Shown here in pieces: positions 25,200 through 35,501 of a stretch of DNA of 64,000 bases; the stretch's first letter is position 1; every line of letters begins with the position of its first letter. Both the position numbers and the translations under genes were made by a program. This DNA is from Pirellulales bacterium. GTDB lineage: Bacteria > Planctomycetota > Planctomycetia > Pirellulales > Thermoguttaceae. Where the stretch lies: the NCBI GenBank assembly GCA_013360685.1, contig JABWBD010000003.1:91-64090 (forward strand). Reading direction: 5' to 3'. The notes beneath the pieces were generated by a model. It was not told the DNA's origin, searched no databases, and saw nothing but the letters and a program-made list of their open reading frames with translations.

Positions 25200-25327
25200 G
25201 GATTTTGGATTTTGGATTTTGGATTTTAGATTTTGGATTTTGGATTACAGAATCTGCCATAGCTCGCGATCGCTGCCCATCATGCTCATTTTCAGGGCTC
25301 TCAATCCAAAATCTAAAATCCAAAATC
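25200..25327. repeat. Intercistronic heptamer-array hairpin: (GGATTTT)x6.5, plus a perfect 25-nt inverted partner
   Basis: Tandem GGATTTT spans 25200-25246, with one AGATTTT variant. 25303-25327 (AATCCAAAATCTAAAATCCAAAATC) is the exact reverse complement of 25215-25239, variant unit included. The element fills the gap between the SBP stop (25328) and the ATPase start (25193). Confidence 0.9.
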
Positions 25328-28376: not shown

Positions 28377-29600
28377 ATGACCAAAGTCACCCATCTCATT
28401 GTATTGTTTGCAGTCTCGATGGCCTTGCTGCCCGTCGCAGGCCGATGCGGCGCCGCGGACGCCGCACGGCAACTTCTCCCGGAGTATTCCCGTCTTGCGA
28501 AAGGAGTCGGCCGGCTGGTTGTTTCGATGGAGACGTCGCGAGAAGCCTTTCCCGAGGAGGAGCCGAGCATGGCTGAAGCGATCCGCGAGTTGTACGCGGT
28601 CGCCATCGATCTTCATGGCATTCAATCCGAGGACTCCCAGTTGAGCTATATCGCCTCTCAATCGCAACGCGCTGTCGCCGAGGCGATCGAAGCGTTCGAG
28701 CGCATCGAAAGGATGCCAAAGCCTTCCGCCGTTGATGTGCTCGGCGGGTCGATCATCTCCGGCTCCCTTGGCGATCCGATCGTTGGCCCAACGGTTTTGG
28801 CCCTCGACGCCATGAAGAAGTCCGAGGATATGATGGCCGAACTCAAGAAAGCCGTGGCAATCTGGAATCGCCTTGACGGCATCCATTCTGGACTTCCCTG
28901 CGTCGCGCAAAAATACTCGCCCGCGGTTGTGGATCAACCGGACCGGCTCGTCCTCGACTTCGACGAAGCGTGGGGGCCGGTCGGCCCGCACGACTGGCTC
29001 CGCCTGGAGAACAACGGGCAAGACCTGGCCGACTGCACAATCCTGGTGGAACTGACTGGCAAATCGGGCCCCGCCCGGCGGAACGTCCACTTTGTCGAGC
29101 ACTGGCCCGCGCACACGCCCCTGTATGCCCGATACGAACCAGGTTTCCTACTCGACGGCGAGTATGCCGGGCGCACGACCGTGTCGAAGGTCCAGCAAAT
29201 CGCCGTAACCGTGTGGTCGCCGAAGGAATCCTTCCGAGCAATCTGTACCTACCTCGGCGAGGAGAAGGATCGCGATATCGCCCGATACTGCGAGACGCTC
29301 TCGCTACATGGTTCGTACAGACCTTTTGAGAAGGGATTTCTCTGGGATACCCAACGCGCCGCCGTCTTTTCGCTCGACGGCATCGAGTCGCTCCCGCCAT
29401 GCCGAGTGACCGTCACGTTCAGCCGCGGCAAGCAATCGAAATGCTGGGATTGGGAGTTGGACGGTTGGAGCCGAGGGCAACGCAAGACGTTCCAGCCGTC
29501 CCGAGGCGCGCTGCCCTTCGACGCGCAGAGAATCGTGGGGGAGATCACGTTCCCGGACACCGGCTACAAACATCGGACCTCGCTTGCAGTGAACCAGTGA
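28377..29600 (+). CDS. Hypothetical secreted protein (full-length copy of a duplicated domain)
   Basis: AAGGAG RBS; signal peptide MTKVTHLIVLFAVSMALLPVAGRCGAADA. The C-terminal ~240 aa are about 85 percent identical by eye to ORF 33270..33947. Confidence 0.6.
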   Translation: MTKVTHLIVLFAVSMALLPVAGRCGAADAARQLLPEYSRLAKGVGRLVVSMETSREAFPEEEPSMAEAIRELYAVAIDLHGIQSEDSQLSYIASQSQRAVAEAIEAFERIERMPKPSAVDVLGGSIISGSLGDPIVGPTVLALDAMKKSEDMMAELKKAVAIWNRLDGIHSGLPCVAQKYSPAVVDQPDRLVLDFDEAWGPVGPHDWLRLENNGQDLADCTILVELTGKSGPARRNVHFVEHWPAHTPLYARYEPGFLLDGEYAGRTTVSKVQQIAVTVWSPKESFRAICTYLGEEKDRDIARYCETLSLHGSYRPFEKGFLWDTQRAAVFSLDGIESLPPCRVTVTFSRGKQSKCWDWELDGWSRGQRKTFQPSRGALPFDAQRIVGEITFPDTGYKHRTSLAVNQ

Positions 29601-30254
29601 CCGCTGTGTTCGGGAACAGATTCGCGCGTTTTTTTCAACCACCCGCCAGAACATCAAGCAGCCCGGCTGCTACCATCGGGAAACAGCTTGGTGCTGCGAG
29701 AATCGGATGGCCAGCAGGCAGGCTGCTTTGCTTTTTGAACTCTTGGCGGATCGTTGTTTCAGTTGGCCGACGGCCTTCGGTCACCGTAGCCTGGGGTGGC
29801 ACGCTGGCAACACCCCAGGTAAGCGGGTGAAGGCAAGCGTTTGGCCAACGGCCATGTTCACCCGTATCTCGCCAGCCATGTCCACAGATCACCCATGAGG
29901 CGATGATGATGGCCTTCGGCCAGATTGGGATTATGTAGCCCCTGGGCCCCGCGGTTCTCGCCTTGCAGGACAGGAGCCCGAGGGCATCCAGTAAATCACG
30001 AACCTGATCGCAGGAGATTGTAGCCATGTCAACGAGGTATTCAAACAAACGACTTCGGACAATCGGCGAGCAGGGGCACGACGTGGGGTTTTCAGCGCCA
30101 GATCTCGATGACGTGCGCGAAGCGAAGGTACTGCTGGAATACCCCTTCTTGCCGCGAGAATCGCCGACATTATCGGAACGCCCATGGAAAAGGCATCTGA
30201 ATGCCTGCCGCAGAAGTGGTCCGAGGTGGTCAACCACGCGTCGCGGAGTGGCAG

Positions 30255-31760
30255 CTACTCAAGCACTTGTTCACGCAGAAAATCAATCTGGTCGGCAACG
30301 TCCAATCGGTTCGTCCAGTTTTCGACCTGATGCGTCCAGAAGAAATCGAGTTCGTTCAGCAGCTCCGGCGCGTGGTCGCTCACATATTGGCCACATACCG
30401 TACGGCCACGACAGGCGAGCATGTACAACAGCCATCGCCGCCGCTGTCCCGAGCTTGCACGAATCAGTCGCACTATGTGCGGCACGAAATCGAGTCGGCT
30501 CAGCAAGACCGCTTGTACCAACCCGGCAGACTGGCGGCCGTCGTCGCCGACGTGCCGCAAAAGTGCTTCGAGATTGTCGGAACAGACCATTCTTGAGAGC
30601 GCCAAGATAGCATGGACGGCCACCACTTCGTCGCTATCATGGACATGAGCGACCAGGCCGGTCAATTCGGCATCGGTCGAAACCTCCGCCAGTCCCCAAG
30701 CGCCGGCCGCTCGCAATTCCGAGTCGTTCGACGTATCTTCCACCAAGCCTCTCAGGAGATCAAGGGATCGTCTGCCAGGCATCTCGGCCAGTATCAGTGC
30801 CGATTCCATTCGGTACTCTCTGGCCACGTCATGGTCATGGACGATCCTGGAAATCGAATCCCATCCCTCCTCGAAGCCAAGACGAGCAAGTGAAGCGGCT
30901 GCCTCCAGGCGAATTCTGCCGTCCTCGGAGTGGTCCATGAGGTGGCTGAGCCGCCCCCTGCTCACGGCGGCTACGTCGGGCAGGAACCCCAGTGCTTTCA
31001 CCGCGGCATACACCGACTCGGTGCTGTCGCTTTCCAAATCGGAGAAGAAGTCGTATCGCTGCGACGGGGAAGCTGAAGGGGTCAACATGACGCGCAGCGC
31101 CGACGCGAGAATCGCGTCGCCGTCGCCGAACACGTCACCGACGTTGACGTGCGGTACTAGCCTTAATCTTCCGCTGCCCGATTTGCGCAAGAGGCGATAG
31201 GTTTGCTTTCGGCCGCCCGCCAACTGCGTGCTGATGGAGTCGCGCGACACGCTCAAGACCCTGCCCGCCCGTTTGGCGACCATTGTGGGCCAGGTGAAAG
31301 GGACCTCGCTTCCTTCCGATGCTGACTTCCTTTGCCCCGGCTTGGCCAGGTGCCAAGTGGACCGCATATCGCCGACGCGAAAAATCGCCACTCGATCACT
31401 GGCTATCCAGGTATCGTCGATCGGCCAGCATCGAATGAACGCCACGATGTCGTGGTCTCGGAGTCCTTTGTCCCATGCGCGATCGGGGTTGTTTACCGAG
31501 TGAGACATCGTGATCTTCAGATCGGCCTTGGCGCGGCACTCGATCCGTATGCCGGACTCCAGACAGAGAAGATCGGGAACCCGCAATCGCTTGATCTTGG
31601 TTGCCCAAATCTTGATGCTGCAACAGTAGCGTTCCAGTTCGATGATGCGGAATCCACCCTGCCTCAGGATGGCGGCAACCTTTCGCGTGCCAACCGCACC
31701 GATGCTGACGTTTCGTAGAAACTCCCGGTTGCTCTTGAACCCCACGGTGGCCGCCCTCAA
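30255..31760 (-). CDS. Hjc/PD-(D/E)xK-like N-terminal domain fused to HEAT (PBS-lyase-type) repeats; occupies the R slot of a C-controlled R-M-like cassette
   Basis: The TTG start (31760-31758) overlaps the TGA stop of the upstream C gene (TTGA). The N-terminus GAVGTRKVAAILRQGGFRIIELER...VPDLLCLESGIRIECRAK follows the Hjc/restriction-endonuclease-fold pattern (G...GF.v.R ... PD ... hExK), with Thr for the first Glu and ECR/AK for ExK. The C-terminus has at least 5 HEAT-like repeats (DGRIRLEAAASLARLG, DSELRAAGAWGLAEV, SDEVVAVHAILALSRM ...). Confidence 0.65.
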   Translation of the reverse strand: MRAATVGFKSNREFLRNVSIGAVGTRKVAAILRQGGFRIIELERYCCSIKIWATKIKRLRVPDLLCLESGIRIECRAKADLKITMSHSVNNPDRAWDKGLRDHDIVAFIRCWPIDDTWIASDRVAIFRVGDMRSTWHLAKPGQRKSASEGSEVPFTWPTMVAKRAGRVLSVSRDSISTQLAGGRKQTYRLLRKSGSGRLRLVPHVNVGDVFGDGDAILASALRVMLTPSASPSQRYDFFSDLESDSTESVYAAVKALGFLPDVAAVSRGRLSHLMDHSEDGRIRLEAAASLARLGFEEGWDSISRIVHDHDVAREYRMESALILAEMPGRRSLDLLRGLVEDTSNDSELRAAGAWGLAEVSTDAELTGLVAHVHDSDEVVAVHAILALSRMVCSDNLEALLRHVGDDGRQSAGLVQAVLLSRLDFVPHIVRLIRASSGQRRRWLLYMLACRGRTVCGQYVSDHAPELLNELDFFWTHQVENWTNRLDVADQIDFLREQVLE

Positions 31761-31978
31761 TGGCTGGCAGCATCAGGCATCAGCTCCGACATGGCGACAT
31801 CCAAGGCGATGGCCAACCTCTCGATGTTCACGAGAGAGATGTTGCGTTCGCCACGTTCGACGCCACTGACGTAAGTCCGATGAAGGCCGGCCAGGTCCGC
31901 CAGCCTTTCCTGGGAAATCCCCTTCTTTCGGCGGATTTCTCGGAGTCGTTCCCCAAACCGGACCTGCACGTCGGACAA
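31757..31978 (-). CDS. Controller (C) protein, XRE-family HTH regulator of R-M systems
   Basis: A 73-aa protein. GISQERLADLAGLHRTYVSGVERGERNISLVNIERLAIALDV closely follows the conserved C-protein core (LSQE.LA...G..R.Y.S..ERG.RN.SL.NI..LA.AL). TTG start. It is divergent from the methyltransferase and overlaps the downstream gene. Confidence 0.85.
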   Translation of the reverse strand: MSDVQVRFGERLREIRRKKGISQERLADLAGLHRTYVSGVERGERNISLVNIERLAIALDVAMSELMPDAASH

Positions 31979-32018
31979 GATGGTACCCTTTGCTGCATCA
32001 ACAGGATGCCCAAAGCTA

Positions 32019-32090
32019 TTGACGGCAGTGTCGGGGATTGCATATTATACGTCTACAGCCTTTAAGTTACGGTAACGTATCGTCTACACG
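32019..32090. promoter_or_regulatory. Divergent promoter/operator candidate for the M and C genes
   Basis: AT-rich patch. TTGACG (32019-32024), an 18-nt spacer, then TATTAT (32043-32048) reads toward M. Direct repeats TATaCGTCTACA (32046-32057) and TATCGTCTACA (32078-32088) lie 31 bp apart and flank the palindrome GTTACgGTAAC (32066-32076). Confidence 0.4.
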
Positions 32091-32145
32091 ACTGGGAAAC
32101 TTCCGGGAAACTTGGTACGCTGCAATGAAGAGGAGAGCACGCTCG

Positions 32146-33135
32146 ATGCAGGGGAATGGACGAGTAGTCGAGGTCTACCGGACCAAGTTCGGCAGGGCGG
32201 TTCTGTCCAAGGCCGAAGACTACCTGCCGTCAATGCCGGAAAACTCCGTAGACTTGGTGGTCACGTCGCCCCCTTTCGCCCTCTTGCGACAGAAGGCATA
32301 TGGGAACCTGGACCAAGCCGATTACGTCGATTGGCTCGTCTCGTTTGGCCCGCTGGTGCGACGAGTCCTGAAGGACAGCGGCAGTTGGGTGCTGGACTTG
32401 GGCGGCGCCTATCAGCGCGGAGTCCCCTGCCGCTCGTTGTACAACTACCGGGTTCTTCTTCGGCTGTGTGATGAACACGGCTTCTATCTCGCCGAGGAGT
32501 TCTTCTGGCACAACCCGGCCAAACTGCCTTCGCCCATCGAATGGGTGAACAAGCGCAAGATTCGCGCTAAGGATTCAGTCAATACGATCTGGTGGCTTGC
32601 CAAGTCCGAGAATCCCAAGGCCAATGTCAGCAATGTCCTTGCGCCCTACAGCGCGCGCATGAAGCAGTTGATGAAGGATCCGGAAGCCTTCTATCGACCG
32701 AAGGATCGTCCGTCCGGGCACGACATCAGCGCCAAATTCGGCAAAGACAACGGTGGGGCGATCCCCTCAAACCTATTGCAGTACCCGAACACCGAGAGCA
32801 ACTCCGTCCATATCCGGCTGTGCAAGGCGCACGACGTCGAACCGCACCCTGCGCGGTTCCCTCGCTCGTTGCCGGAGTTCTTCATCAAGTTCTTGACCGA
32901 TTCCGGCGATACGGTCATGGACATTTTCGCCGGCTCGAACACGACGGGGGAGGCGGCTGAGTTGCTGGGCCGATCCTGGATTGCTCTGGAGTGCAATGTC
33001 GAATACATTATTGGCTCGGCCTTCCGGTTCATGGCCGAATGGCCGGACGATGAAGTCGCGGACTTCGTCCGCAAGGCTCGGGACGTTCCGGCCGAACCTT
33101 TACGCGTCCGATCGTTGCAGCGATCACTATTCTGA
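32146..33135 (+). CDS. Beta-class amino DNA methyltransferase, SPPF type (predicted N4-cytosine; N6-adenine not excluded)
   Basis: ORF 32038..33135. ATG 32146 has AGGAG 10 nt upstream; ATG 32125 is possible. Motif IV VDLVVTSPPFALL precedes motif I DIFAGSNTTGEAAELLGRSWIALE, which is the beta-class order. HPARFP is also typical of this N4/N6 family. Confidence 0.9.
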   Translation: MQGNGRVVEVYRTKFGRAVLSKAEDYLPSMPENSVDLVVTSPPFALLRQKAYGNLDQADYVDWLVSFGPLVRRVLKDSGSWVLDLGGAYQRGVPCRSLYNYRVLLRLCDEHGFYLAEEFFWHNPAKLPSPIEWVNKRKIRAKDSVNTIWWLAKSENPKANVSNVLAPYSARMKQLMKDPEAFYRPKDRPSGHDISAKFGKDNGGAIPSNLLQYPNTESNSVHIRLCKAHDVEPHPARFPRSLPEFFIKFLTDSGDTVMDIFAGSNTTGEAAELLGRSWIALECNVEYIIGSAFRFMAEWPDDEVADFVRKARDVPAEPLRVRSLQRSLF

Positions 33136-33206
33136 ATCCATGCCGTGCGGTCTCTTGGCAACTTGTTTCACTGGTCAGGGCCACATCCCTGTCGGGCGCT
33201 GATTAA

Positions 33207-33947
33207 CGCCATTACCACTCCGGTGGACACGCGTGGCTGGTTCCCAGGATTTCGCAGAAATACGCGCCGGTGATTGTAAATCAACCGGACCAGCTCATCC
33301 TCGACTTCGACGAGGCCTGGGGGCCGGTCGGCCCGAACGACTGGCTCCGCCTGGAGAACATCGGGCAAGACCTGGCCGACTGCACAAATCTGGTGGAACT
33401 GACCGCCAAATCGGGCCCCGCTCGGCGGAACGTCCACTTTGTCGAGCACTGGCCGGCGCACACGCCCCTCTATGCTCGATACGAACCGGGTTTCCTACTC
33501 GACGGCGAGTACGCCGGGCGCACGACCGTGTCGGAGGTCCGGCAACTCGCCGTAACCGTGTGGTCGTTGAAGGAAGCCTTTCGAACGAGCTATGTCTACC
33601 TTGGCGAAGAGAAGGATCACGATATCGCCCGATACTGCGAGATGCTCTCGCTGCACGGATCGTACAGGCCCTTTGAGGAGGGCTTGCTCTGGGACACCCA
33701 GCGGGCCGCCGTCTTCACGCTCGACGGCATCGAGTCGCTTCCGCCGTGCCGGGTGATCGTCACGTTCATCGGCGGCGGTCAATCGAAGTCCTGGTACTGG
33801 GAGTTGGACGGCTGGAGTCGGGGGCAGCGCAAGACGTTTCAGCCGCCGCGAGGCGCCTTGACGTTTGATGCGCAGAGAATCGTGGGAGAAATCACGTTCC
33901 CGGAGACGCGCTACAAGCATCGAACCACGCTTCCGGTGAGCCATTAA
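33207..33947 (+). pseudogene. 5'-truncated paralogue of gene 28377..29600 (C-terminal domain only)
   Basis: ORF 33270..33947 (GTG start). Homology to 28885-29600 already begins upstream of that GTG (..YHSG..SQKYAPVIVNQPDQLILDFDEAWGPVGP.. versus ..IHSG..AQKYSPAVVDQPDRLVLDFDEAWGPVGP..). It lacks the signal peptide and the N-terminal ~170 aa. It could still be expressed as a stand-alone domain. Confidence 0.5.
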
Positions 33948-33959
33948 CGCGGGTACCTA

Positions 33960-34619
33960 TCATTTTGGAAGGTGTTCCACCATTCCGTCCTCCGATACAA
34001 CCAAAATAAGACACTTCTCATGCTGGCTTAAGTACCGGACTGCCGAGTTGTATCTTGCACCCCGGGCCGGATCGCCGTGTTTGCTTGCTTTGCCATCGAG
34101 AATGACGCCAATGCCGTGGCACACGCCATTAAGATCAACGACGATCGCGCCGTCGATCGCGGACGCTCCCGTGATCAATTCTTCAGTCGCTTTGAAAGGG
34201 AGGATGGTGCCGCCTTCAGCTAACCGCCGCGCCTCCTTGCGCGCGGACGGAGAAATCACGAGCATTGTGCCGTGCTTCGCCTTCGCCGCGAACGACACCA
34301 TATCGAGCAGTCGAGCCTTTGCGGTAGAACTAATGGATGGAAAGATCCGCTGGAGCGCAGCTTCGACCTCAGCCACATCATACTGGCGCTTTGGGAGTCC
34401 CGGCTGCCCGTATTCGACGCGCATCAGCGCAGTGTCGAGATGCCATAATTCCCAACAATGGTGTTTGACGAACTTGACTTCAAAAGTGTCGGCGTTCGTT
34501 ACATCGTATTGCTTTCGATCAAAGTTCCCAAGTCCGTAGACACAGCGAGAGTCCGACAGGACGTGCAAGTTTTCCGTGCACATTTCCAGGATTTTGCGCG
34601 CTCGTCGGTAATGAACCAT
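33960..34619 (-). CDS. Diadenylate-cyclase (DisA_N/DAC)-like domain protein with a degenerate RHR motif
   Basis: Residues 116-219 reproduce the DAC block order: HGTMLVIS (GALIV block), SAIDGAIVV (DGA motif), GDPARGARYNSAVRY (in place of GTRHRAA) and LILVVSEDGMV (VVSEETG block). The N-terminal 115 aa are unassigned. The stretch has lower G+C. Confidence 0.6.
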   Translation of the reverse strand: MVHYRRARKILEMCTENLHVLSDSRCVYGLGNFDRKQYDVTNADTFEVKFVKHHCWELWHLDTALMRVEYGQPGLPKRQYDVAEVEAALQRIFPSISSTAKARLLDMVSFAAKAKHGTMLVISPSARKEARRLAEGGTILPFKATEELITGASAIDGAIVVDLNGVCHGIGVILDGKASKHGDPARGARYNSAVRYLSQHEKCLILVVSEDGMVEHLPK

Positions 34620-34709: not shown

Positions 34710-35501
34710 CTACCTCATTGACGAGATGACCGTCGCCGCATCGAACAGGTCGTAGGTGCCATGAAGCAAGGTATCTCTCGGAGAGAACCGCGTTCCAGCC
34801 CACGCCTGGTCGCGCGTGAAGAAGGTACCTGCAATGCGTAGAAGTTCGCGTGTGTCGCGCTGCCTCCATTCCAGCAACGCGCCGGCATTGCGCTTCCTCA
34901 ACTCTTCCGCCGCGTCAGCGAGCACGACCTCGACGGCACCCCACACGAAGGACGGCGACCGGCCGTTCTGCTGATACACAGAGCCATCGAGGTGCGGGTA
35001 GCGGTTATACTGATCGCGATGGACCGCGGCAATGAGGCAGACCACATACCCGTTAATTTCGGCTGGTTGCGACGCAAAGACCAGCATGGAGTGCGAGTCG
35101 AGTATCTCTTCCACGGCGTGCTTGATCTCGCGCCAGCACGTCCGTAGGAAGTCGCAGTGCCTCGAATATGTGTTTCCCCATTTGGCTGGAGGCAACCCAT
35201 CGTTCGGAGGGAGCGTCCTGGCGGTTGTGAGTTCCTGGAACCTTCCAGTGAACTGGCGGGATTTAACGGGAGCCACGCGCGTAGGCGATACAACTGTCTT
35301 CCCATTTGCGAGACTCGCCCCCACCAAGAACACCCAGGGAGTCATTTCCGCCCCGAGTGACTCAAGGACATTTTCTAACGTATTCCGATACAGGTGCACA
35401 AATTCATCTTGATGTTGCCATATCCGACGTGTTCGCACGGAAACCTCCAAAGTCTTCTTCGTGGATTGTGCAAAAGGACCTCCACTGCTGGCAGGATACA
35501 A
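34710..35501 (-). CDS. Hypothetical protein, upstream partner of the DAC-like gene
   Basis: A 263-aa ORF with a TTG start (uncertain), on the same strand and 90 bp upstream of the DAC-like gene. G+C is lower than the flanks. No motif was recognised. Confidence 0.5.
   Translation of the reverse strand: MYPASSGGPFAQSTKKTLEVSVRTRRIWQHQDEFVHLYRNTLENVLESLGAEMTPWVFLVGASLANGKTVVSPTRVAPVKSRQFTGRFQELTTARTLPPNDGLPPAKWGNTYSRHCDFLRTCWREIKHAVEEILDSHSMLVFASQPAEINGYVVCLIAAVHRDQYNRYPHLDGSVYQQNGRSPSFVWGAVEVVLADAAEELRKRNAGALLEWRQRDTRELLRIAGTFFTRDQAWAGTRFSPRDTLLHGTYDLFDAATVISSMR

Follow-up and report, generated by a model that had tools for sequence, protein, structure and literature searches.

We describe here a restriction-modification (R-M) cassette of about 2.9 kb (30254-33137), located in a 64,000-nt stretch of the genome of a Pirellulales bacterium (GenBank assembly GCA_013360685.1, contig JABWBD010000003.1, positions 91 to 64,090); 'window' refers to the whole of this stretch, of which the cassette is one part. 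The cassette consists of three genes in the divergent order R<-C<- ->M, all of them open reading frames (ORFs) found where an initial annotation of the bare sequence had placed them:

30255..31760, minus strand: R gene, 501-aa ORF from TTG 31760, encoding a putative type II restriction endonuclease (REase) of a new family
31757..31978, minus strand: C gene, encoding a 73-aa controller protein with an HRTY recognition helix
32146..33135, plus strand: M gene, encoding a beta-class N4-cytosine methyltransferase, orthologous to M.PvuII

Dozens of unrelated genomes share this gene order, which is thus beyond chance. DNA similarity between the window and its closest loci starts at 30254-30274 and stops at 33073-33137 (at 85% in locus L005, and also in L006 and L007); as similarity to other genomes breaks off exactly at the cassette ends, the transferred unit consists of the three genes M, C and R alone, and the cassette is mobile. 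It lies within a stretch of lower G+C content (0.56-0.61 across 28-37 kb, compared with 0.62-0.68 in most of the window), as the initial annotation had stated. On the evidence set out below, the cassette is in all likelihood a genuine C-protein-controlled type II R-M system whose REase has a new architecture; what had cautiously been called an 'R-M-like' cassette can therefore simply be called an R-M system.

The M protein contains both the catalytic motif IV and the S-adenosylmethionine (AdoMet) motif, and the order in which they occur (TSPPF ahead of DIFAGSNTTG) is that of the beta class. This motif order, together with matches to Pfam PF01555 N6_N4_Mtase (4.6e-38) and to the solved structure of M.PvuII (1BOO, 5.6e-119), supports its earlier description as a beta-class SPPF methyltransferase; it also matches the PADLOC MTase_II model PDLC03323 (6.3e-139). 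M.PvuII is an N4-methylcytosine (m4C) methyltransferase for CAGCTG. The two proteins are 56.5% identical over 299 aligned positions, rising to 60-80% in the central region, and tblastn with M as the query picked out the corresponding pPvu1 gene among plasmids, at 58% identity. The M protein of a Gluconobacter plasmid is 62% identical to that of the window and has a true R.PvuII homologue as its partner, which places the window enzyme within the PvuII methyltransferase orthologue group. Its reading frame is open from 32038 to the stop at 33135, and two in-frame ATGs, 7 codons apart (32125 and 32146), lie 3' of a predicted promoter (see below); two isoforms of M, one from each ATG, are possible.

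The short gene divergent from M had been proposed to encode a controller, and this proves correct: the C protein matches the PADLOC Control_protein model (1.5e-27) and the solved controllers C.BclI (1.6e-21) and C.AhdI (1.5e-20). The regulatory elements read in and around the region between C and M are as follows:

32043..32068, minus strand: C-box operator, AACT-TAA-AGGC-TGTA-GACG-TAT-AATA in the sense of C (32068-32043)
32074..32088, minus strand: second TGTA-GACG-ATA-CGTT element (TGTAGACG-ATA-CGTT), 31 bp upstream of the C-box
32019..32048, plus strand: σ70-like promoter TTGACG-18-TATTAT facing M (promoter scan, 10/12 matches)

The consensus C-box is GACT-N3-AGTC-N4-GACT-N3-AGTC; C proteins with an HRTY helix mostly use a TGTA spacer, activation requires this spacer, and GACG works at half-site 2A (Mruk et al., PMC2175313). 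Compared with this consensus, the window C-box matches the spacer at 4/4 positions and the successive half-sites at 3/4, 3/4, 3/4 and 1/4. The C start follows about 65-90 bp downstream. The box resembles that read in pPvu1 and is kept in related loci, becoming near-canonical in the distant loci L046 (TACT-CAT-AGTC-TGTA-GATG-CAT-AGTC) and L083. The TGTA spacer and the HRTY helix fit a PvuII-type regulation. The second element, TGTAGACG-ATA-CGTT, is kept in a planctomycete subgroup (L005-L008, L010, L012, L014 and L018) and is possibly an additional C-binding site. By its coordinates, the -10 of the predicted M promoter overlaps half-site 2B of the C-box, so that binding of C could also damp M expression. 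At the other end of the C gene, the stop codon (31757) overlaps the TTG codon at the 5' end of R in the sequence TTGA; a distance of no more than about 20 nt between C stop and R start is typical of C-controlled systems, and in PvuII itself translational coupling was not detected (Kaw and Blumenthal, PMC2997769).

The PvuII system of the Proteus plasmid pPvu1 has the same layout, with R.PvuII, a small helix-turn-helix (HTH) regulator and a divergent methyltransferase, and there, too, the C stop and R start are a few nucleotides apart. Besides M, the two systems have in common a C protein that is 53% identical, with the HRTY helices aligned, and a C-box with TGTA spacer upstream of C, and the initial reading of the locus as a PvuII-type controller architecture is therefore well founded. 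The systems differ in that the C transcript of PvuII is leaderless, whereas that of the window probably is not, given the distance of the C-box from the C start, and in that the PvuII genes reside on a plasmid whereas the window cassette is chromosomal and has a weak half-site 2B. The main difference concerns the R protein, which has 496-501 aa in the window and 157 aa in PvuII. BLASTP between the two gives E=2 and no meaningful alignment, and when a profile of the N-terminal domain of window R was compared with a five-member R.PvuII profile, hhalign returned a probability of 0.15% over 5 columns. With an R unrelated to R.PvuII inside a conserved C/M scaffold, the sequences indicate that the R gene has undergone non-orthologous replacement. 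It is familiar for one site to be cut by non-homologous REases and for R genes to be swapped. Other PvuII-like methyltransferases encoded on plasmids are accompanied by different partners: in the Acinetobacter plasmid pKO16_MAC the partner is a C-R.PvuII fusion of 260 aa with an HTH N-terminus (L173:977-1759), and two further plasmid loci (L174:1689-2672 and L175:3060-4079) combine such an M with HNH endonucleases of 327-339 aa. The PvuII-like methyltransferase family therefore works with at least three or four nucleases that are unrelated to one another, indicating that exchange of the nuclease is recurrent and that the replacement seen here is not exceptional.

As the initial annotation had noted, the R protein is not recognizable as a type II enzyme, and searches of the whole protein against Pfam, PADLOC, NCBIfam, PHROGs and PDB gave HEAT matches but no REase model. 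The C-terminal part matches Pfam PF13646 HEAT_2 (1.1e-10; 42.1 bits compared with a cut-off of 27.7), alphaRep designs in the PDB (2.5e-12) and, weakly, NblB (4.7e-4). A profile of the N-terminal domain found nothing meaningful in PDB or Pfam, and the middle domain nothing useful in Pfam, with one homologue weakly matching Apocytochr_F_C. The TTGA overlap of C and R, on which the 501-aa length rests, is present in the sequence as described, but TTG 31760 is not the likelier start: most homologues begin at M/V-GFKSD and residues 1-7 of the structural model have a predicted local distance difference test score (pLDDT) below 50, both of which favour GTG 31745, which follows a GAGG and lies 11 nt beyond the C stop, as the probable start of a 496-aa protein. 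The C and R genes are tightly linked with either start. The corresponding public NCBI protein (P0018, from a Pirellulales metagenome-assembled genome (MAG)) is 100% identical and has 311 aa; it carries the name 'HEAT repeat domain-containing protein' and lacks the nuclease-like domain because the non-ATG start was missed. Other family members are likewise annotated merely as HEAT-repeat or hypothetical proteins.

Homologues of R form a compact family of about 350 clusters, almost all of about 490 aa; one search gave 470 hits, full length down to 35% identity. A GTDB-based scan of one genome each of 185,579 species recovered 152 relatives, and the phyla represented in the family include Planctomycetota, Bacillota, Pseudomonadota, Cyanobacteria, Acidobacteriota, Chloroflexota, Spirochaetota and Verrucomicrobiota. 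Among the cultured hosts are Paenibacillus alvei, Peptoniphilus catoniae, Gemelliphila asaccharolytica KA00071, Sphingomonas gilva ZDH117, Bradyrhizobium sp. STM 3562 and Pseudogemmobacter sonorensis. Plasmid and phage collections contained no copy, and 4 of 2.9 million viral contigs did. An exhaustive profile search with the N-terminal domain against 1.84 billion representatives yielded 351 proteins, which among the matches listed all belong to the R family; the best 150 of the 351 are almost all about 490 aa long or fragments, and neither another architecture nor an informative remote homologue was seen among them, which indicates that the fusion of its domains is fixed. According to the initial annotation, no described restriction or defence effector was known to have this combination, and our searches of the literature found no restriction enzyme with HEAT repeats. 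The family is uncharacterized, widely but sparsely distributed, and combines domains in a way that has not been reported for REases.

An AlphaFold model of R, computed with a 39-sequence alignment, has a pLDDT of 92 and a predicted template modelling score (pTM) of 0.89. Where the initial annotation had divided the protein into about 200 aa of nuclease and 260 aa of HEAT repeats, the HEAT part is confirmed and the two-domain division gives way to three modelled domains:

31356..31739, minus strand: R residues ~8-135, basic α/β domain, putative PD-(D/E)xK catalytic and recognition core
31086..31328, minus strand: R residues ~145-225, all-β domain resembling a barrel-sandwich hybrid, with eight β-strands in the model
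30270..31055, minus strand: R residues ~236-497, acidic α-solenoid of HEAT repeats

In the model, the N-terminal domain has the topology α-β-loop-β(D63)-β(E74xRxK)-β-β-β-α. A helix (12-34) and a strand (39-41) are followed by a 20-residue conserved basic loop, SNKIWATKIKRLRVPD, and by two further strands, of which one (64-66) is preceded by the invariant P62-D63 and the next (72-78) carries the invariant E74, the near-invariant R76 (R/K) and the invariant K78; E43, upstream of D63, is also invariant. The D...ExR/K arrangement on a β-hairpin of an α/β core is the PD-(D/E)xK signature motif, and the domain is basic throughout the family (median isoelectric point (pI) 9.8). Foldseek searches of BFVD gave weak matches (TM 0.4-0.5) to small phage proteins, a few of which are named restriction endonuclease or Holliday junction resolvase. 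The motif, the modelled topology and these weak matches together suggest that the domain probably has a PD-(D/E)xK fold; of the earlier proposal of a Hjc/PD-(D/E)xK-like fold, the motif and topology stand, while the support from Foldseek is weak and a sequence match is lacking. The likeness to minimal nucleases of this fold (type IIP cores and Hjc resolvases) lies in the α-β-β-β core, the basic surface, the Asp at the start of one strand with E-x-K/R in the next, and the upstream Glu. On the other hand, window R matches none of these families by sequence or profile, has mostly Arg at the 'K' position with a further invariant Lys two residues on, carries the conserved 20-residue basic insertion between β1 and β2, and has two more domains permanently attached to its core.

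Foldseek superposes about 65 barrel residues on a domain found in the β subunit of bacterial RNA polymerase (rmsd ~2 Å, ~30% identity). The solenoid comprises 17 modelled helices over 238-496 and matches alphaRep by fold as well as by sequence, so that the C-terminal 260 residues resemble PBS-lyase and alphaRep HEAT-like proteins (HEAT_2, HEAT_PBS; NblB) on both counts. Those proteins are scaffolds or lyase-related and have no linkage to nucleases or methyltransferases, whereas the R family has the solenoid as an obligatory component of its R-M effector. A HEAT-like α-solenoid that acts on DNA has a precedent in the glycosylases AlkC and AlkD, which bind DNA via a basic concave face. In contrast, the solenoid of R has no apparent catalytic role and is consistently acidic across the family (median pI 4.9, net charge -14); this acidity argues against the solenoid as the main DNA-binding surface. 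A role in oligomerization, allostery or autoinhibition is more likely than direct DNA binding. A more specific proposal, which we consider unlikely, is that the barrel and the acidic HEAT domain make restriction conditional, serving either as an intramolecular DNA-mimicking or autoinhibitory module that covers the basic nuclease domain before two sites, or an oligomer, have been engaged, or as a sensor whose surface detects phage factors such as anti-restriction proteins. If true, regulation or sensing by a solenoid would be built into a type II enzyme, and no such mode of control has been described for restriction enzymes.

The initial annotation took the 501-aa protein for the effector occupying the R slot, and this is upheld by its gene neighbourhood, which was analysed in 82 non-redundant loci from many phyla using six-frame ORFs and phmmer. 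A methyltransferase is present within 2.5 kb of the R homologue in 80 of the 82 loci, and in the two remaining ones the contig ends within 300 bp. A co-oriented C homologue abuts or overlaps the R ORF upstream in 68 loci and lies within 84 bp of it in 3 more; some loci from Bacillota are without C and have M directly downstream of R. No further conserved neighbour was found. The methyltransferases are of two unrelated types, PvuII-like (29 loci) and an enzyme of ~600 aa (51 loci), the latter matching the PADLOC PDLC03312 and PglXI models and Pfam N6_N4_Mtase, with no relative in the PDB. The ~600-aa type (found among L002 and L020-L081; e.g. L002:3858-5657) accompanies most members from outside the planctomycetes and Bacillota. 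When R is placed in a neighbour-joining tree, all of one major clade goes with PvuII-like M, and in the other major clade PvuII-like M appears at least 4 separate times among the ~600-aa enzymes. The type of M thus switches repeatedly while R, usually together with C, stays constant, making the protecting methyltransferase the exchangeable component, as would be expected if both types protect the same site. Two planctomycete relatives have a disrupted R beside intact M and C genes: in L014 (6001-6609) it is truncated at 203 aa, and in L018 (6001-8196) it is interrupted.

Orthology of M with M.PvuII predicts CAGCTG as the recognition sequence. Compared with a fourth-order Markov expectation of 10-11 occurrences, CAGCTG is found 0 times in the 64-kb window, whereas CAGCTA, CAGCTC and CAGCTT, each one letter off, occur more often than expected. 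In the pooled flanks of related loci, CAGCTG is the most depleted of the 64 palindromic hexamers in both methyltransferase groups, with observed/expected (O/E) ratios of 0.27 and 0.30, and the one-off variants CAGCTC and CAGCTT are enriched. A degenerate site of the MspA1I type (CMGCKG) was considered and rejected, since CCGCGG and CAGCGG are not depleted. As a control, 80 metagenome loci around an unrelated ATP-binding cassette (ABC)-ATPase gene were treated in the same manner: O/E for CAGCTG was 0.46 in all 80 (rank 5 of 64 palindromes), 0.27 in the closest, planctomycete-like loci (rank 3 of 64) and 0.55 in the distant ones (rank 13 of 64). With a baseline of 0.27-0.46, the absence of CAGCTG from the window is just marginally unusual, and its avoidance may be a lineage-wide trait of these planctomycetes; the depletion, somewhat stronger in hosts of the R family, is consistent with restriction pressure but is not proof of it. 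Weighing these data with the orthology of M, we favour CAGCTG as the recognition site with fair but not high confidence, and R is probably a non-homologous isoschizomer of PvuII.

The R ORF of the window is intact over its 501 codons and departs twice (N49I and P162A) from positions that are at least 85% conserved, compared with a family median of 5 departures. The first of these is due to the following codon:

31614-31616, minus strand: R codon 49, ATC (Ile); a single-base change from AAC to ATC would account for it

N49I may attenuate the window R or be an artefact of the MAG consensus; with its position in the conserved basic loop, reduced activity of this copy is possible and its activity is uncertain.

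The surroundings of the cassette include a long direct repeat and the remains of a second defence gene:

28905..29600, plus strand: left copy of a direct repeat of ~690 bp, forming the 3' half of a 407-aa ORF (28377-29600)
33250..33947, plus strand: right copy, within a 225-aa ORF (33270-33947) that corresponds to the C-terminal half only
33960-34619, minus strand: part of DS2_3_antiphage (NCBIfam), model positions 272-489 of 576; Pfam DACNH+DAC
34710-35501, minus strand: part of DS2_3_antiphage (NCBIfam), model positions 5-236 of 576; Pfam DACNG

The two repeat copies are ~88% identical without indels up to the stop codon and bracket the cassette together with 654 bp of unassigned DNA (29601-30254). 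They may represent an old and long target duplication, or the cassette may have been inserted between or into duplicated genes (tandem paralogues); the encoded protein has no match in Pfam, PADLOC, NCBIfam or PHROGs. The two DS2_3 ORFs immediately to the right of the cassette jointly span most of the model and are a split or truncated defence gene of the diadenylate-cyclase type without its C-terminal end, and with this split gene adjoining it the cassette is part of a small, partly decayed defence islet. The islet is flanked by housekeeping genes (ABC transporter, lipoate ligase) on one side and by an extracytoplasmic function (ECF) sigma factor and a Ser/Thr kinase on the other. Farther away, two heptamer tandem repeats, GGATTTT x6.7 (25200-25246) and the nearly complementary AATCCAA x3.6 (25303-25327), form an inverted pair in the gap between an ABC-ATPase and a periplasmic-binding-protein gene.

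In the mechanism that we infer for this system, M would methylate CAGCTG at N4 of the internal cytosine, and C would bind the C-box upstream of its own gene and activate the C-R operon with a delay while, by overlapping the -10 of the M promoter, probably damping M expression. R, in its 496- or 501-aa form, would act as a restriction endonuclease on unmethylated DNA, using an N-terminal PD-(D/E)xK-like cutting centre composed of D63, E74 and R76/K78, with the conserved basic loop contacting the DNA. The barrel and the acidic HEAT domain would be fixed parts of the enzyme, likelier to be involved in oligomerization or in allosteric or autoinhibitory control than in direct DNA binding. Several of the observations count against this interpretation: the third catalytic position of R is mostly Arg and not Lys; the PDB hits listed by Foldseek, for both the full model and residues 6-230, include no solved PD-(D/E)xK nuclease matching the N-terminal domain, the lists being filled with HEAT/alphaRep and RNA polymerase β matches; half-site 2B of the C-box is poor, with 1/4 positions matching; CAGCTG depletion is not specific to hosts of the R family, as the control loci are depleted too; and residue 49, within SNKIWATKIKRLRVPD, is Asn in 37 of 38 homologues but Ile in the window copy.

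Four alternative explanations were weighed. The cassette might be a real R-M system with a 501-aa REase that acts at a site other than CAGCTG, owing to a diverged specificity of M or to cutting at a distance or at two sites (types IIS, IIE and IIF). A sequence identity of just 56-58% to M.PvuII, the use of a different, ~600-aa methyltransferase by about 60% of the R family, the large extra domains, which would suit a requirement for an effector or a second site, and the depletion of CAGCTG in the controls all lend this some weight. We nevertheless regard it as rather unlikely, since the identity to M.PvuII extends along the whole protein and is highest in its centre, equally similar methyltransferases pair with true R.PvuII homologues, and CAGCTG ranks first of 64 palindromes in both groups while CCGCGG and CAGCGG are not depleted. 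It is less probable still that the window copy is decaying, with an R that has lost some or all of its activity and an M that is in effect an orphan methyltransferase. N49I in the nearly invariant basic loop, the relatives with R truncated or interrupted beside an intact M, the split defence gene next door and the degenerate half-site 2B would agree with decay; yet the R ORF is intact with all invariant residues of catalytic type present, it deviates at fewer conserved positions than the family median, C, the core of the C-box and M are intact, and CAGCTG is wholly absent from the 64 kb.

The two remaining alternatives concern the nature of R itself. Its N-terminal domain could be a very divergent R.PvuII homologue, in which case R would have been elaborated by accretion of domains and not replaced. 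The spacing of acidic residues is indeed similar (D58-x9-E68-x-K70 in R.PvuII and D63-x10-E74-x-R76 in window R) and both proteins have N-terminal helices followed by a β-sheet, but such a relationship is rejected at the profile level by the hhalign result given above, BLASTP likewise gave no meaningful alignment, R.PvuII structures are absent among the PDB hits listed by Foldseek, and we consider it very unlikely. Finally, the 501-aa protein might not be a nuclease at all but an accessory or regulatory HEAT scaffold, with the nuclease encoded elsewhere, or part of a methyltransferase-linked module with a function other than restriction. Sequence searches detect no nuclease family in it, and HEAT repeats, acidic here, are a typical protein-protein interaction module. 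Against this, the mobile unit consists of the M, C and R genes alone, in about 70 loci the gene is located precisely at the C-controlled R position, no conserved neighbours were seen beyond these, and the strongly basic N-terminal domain carries an invariant D...ExR/K...K on a β-hairpin, which makes a non-nuclease role highly improbable. The reading of R as the REase of a C-controlled, PvuII-type system is therefore the one that we retain.

The surprise is confined to the architecture of R and the role of its acidic HEAT solenoid, and does not extend to a new kind of system. The R family would be a new family of restriction endonucleases in which a PD-(D/E)xK-like core is combined with a barrel-sandwich hybrid and HEAT repeats, and it marks a blind spot of annotation, its members being labelled 'HEAT repeat protein' and, in the record of this genome, having the nuclease domain cut off. 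The exchange of the R gene within the PvuII C/M scaffold would represent a natural experiment on how one site, probably CAGCTG, comes to be cut by unrelated nucleases through convergence. A non-homologous isoschizomer of PvuII could differ from it in cut position, star activity or sensitivity to methylation, and R may reveal whether a large acidic solenoid contributes to the control of cleavage.

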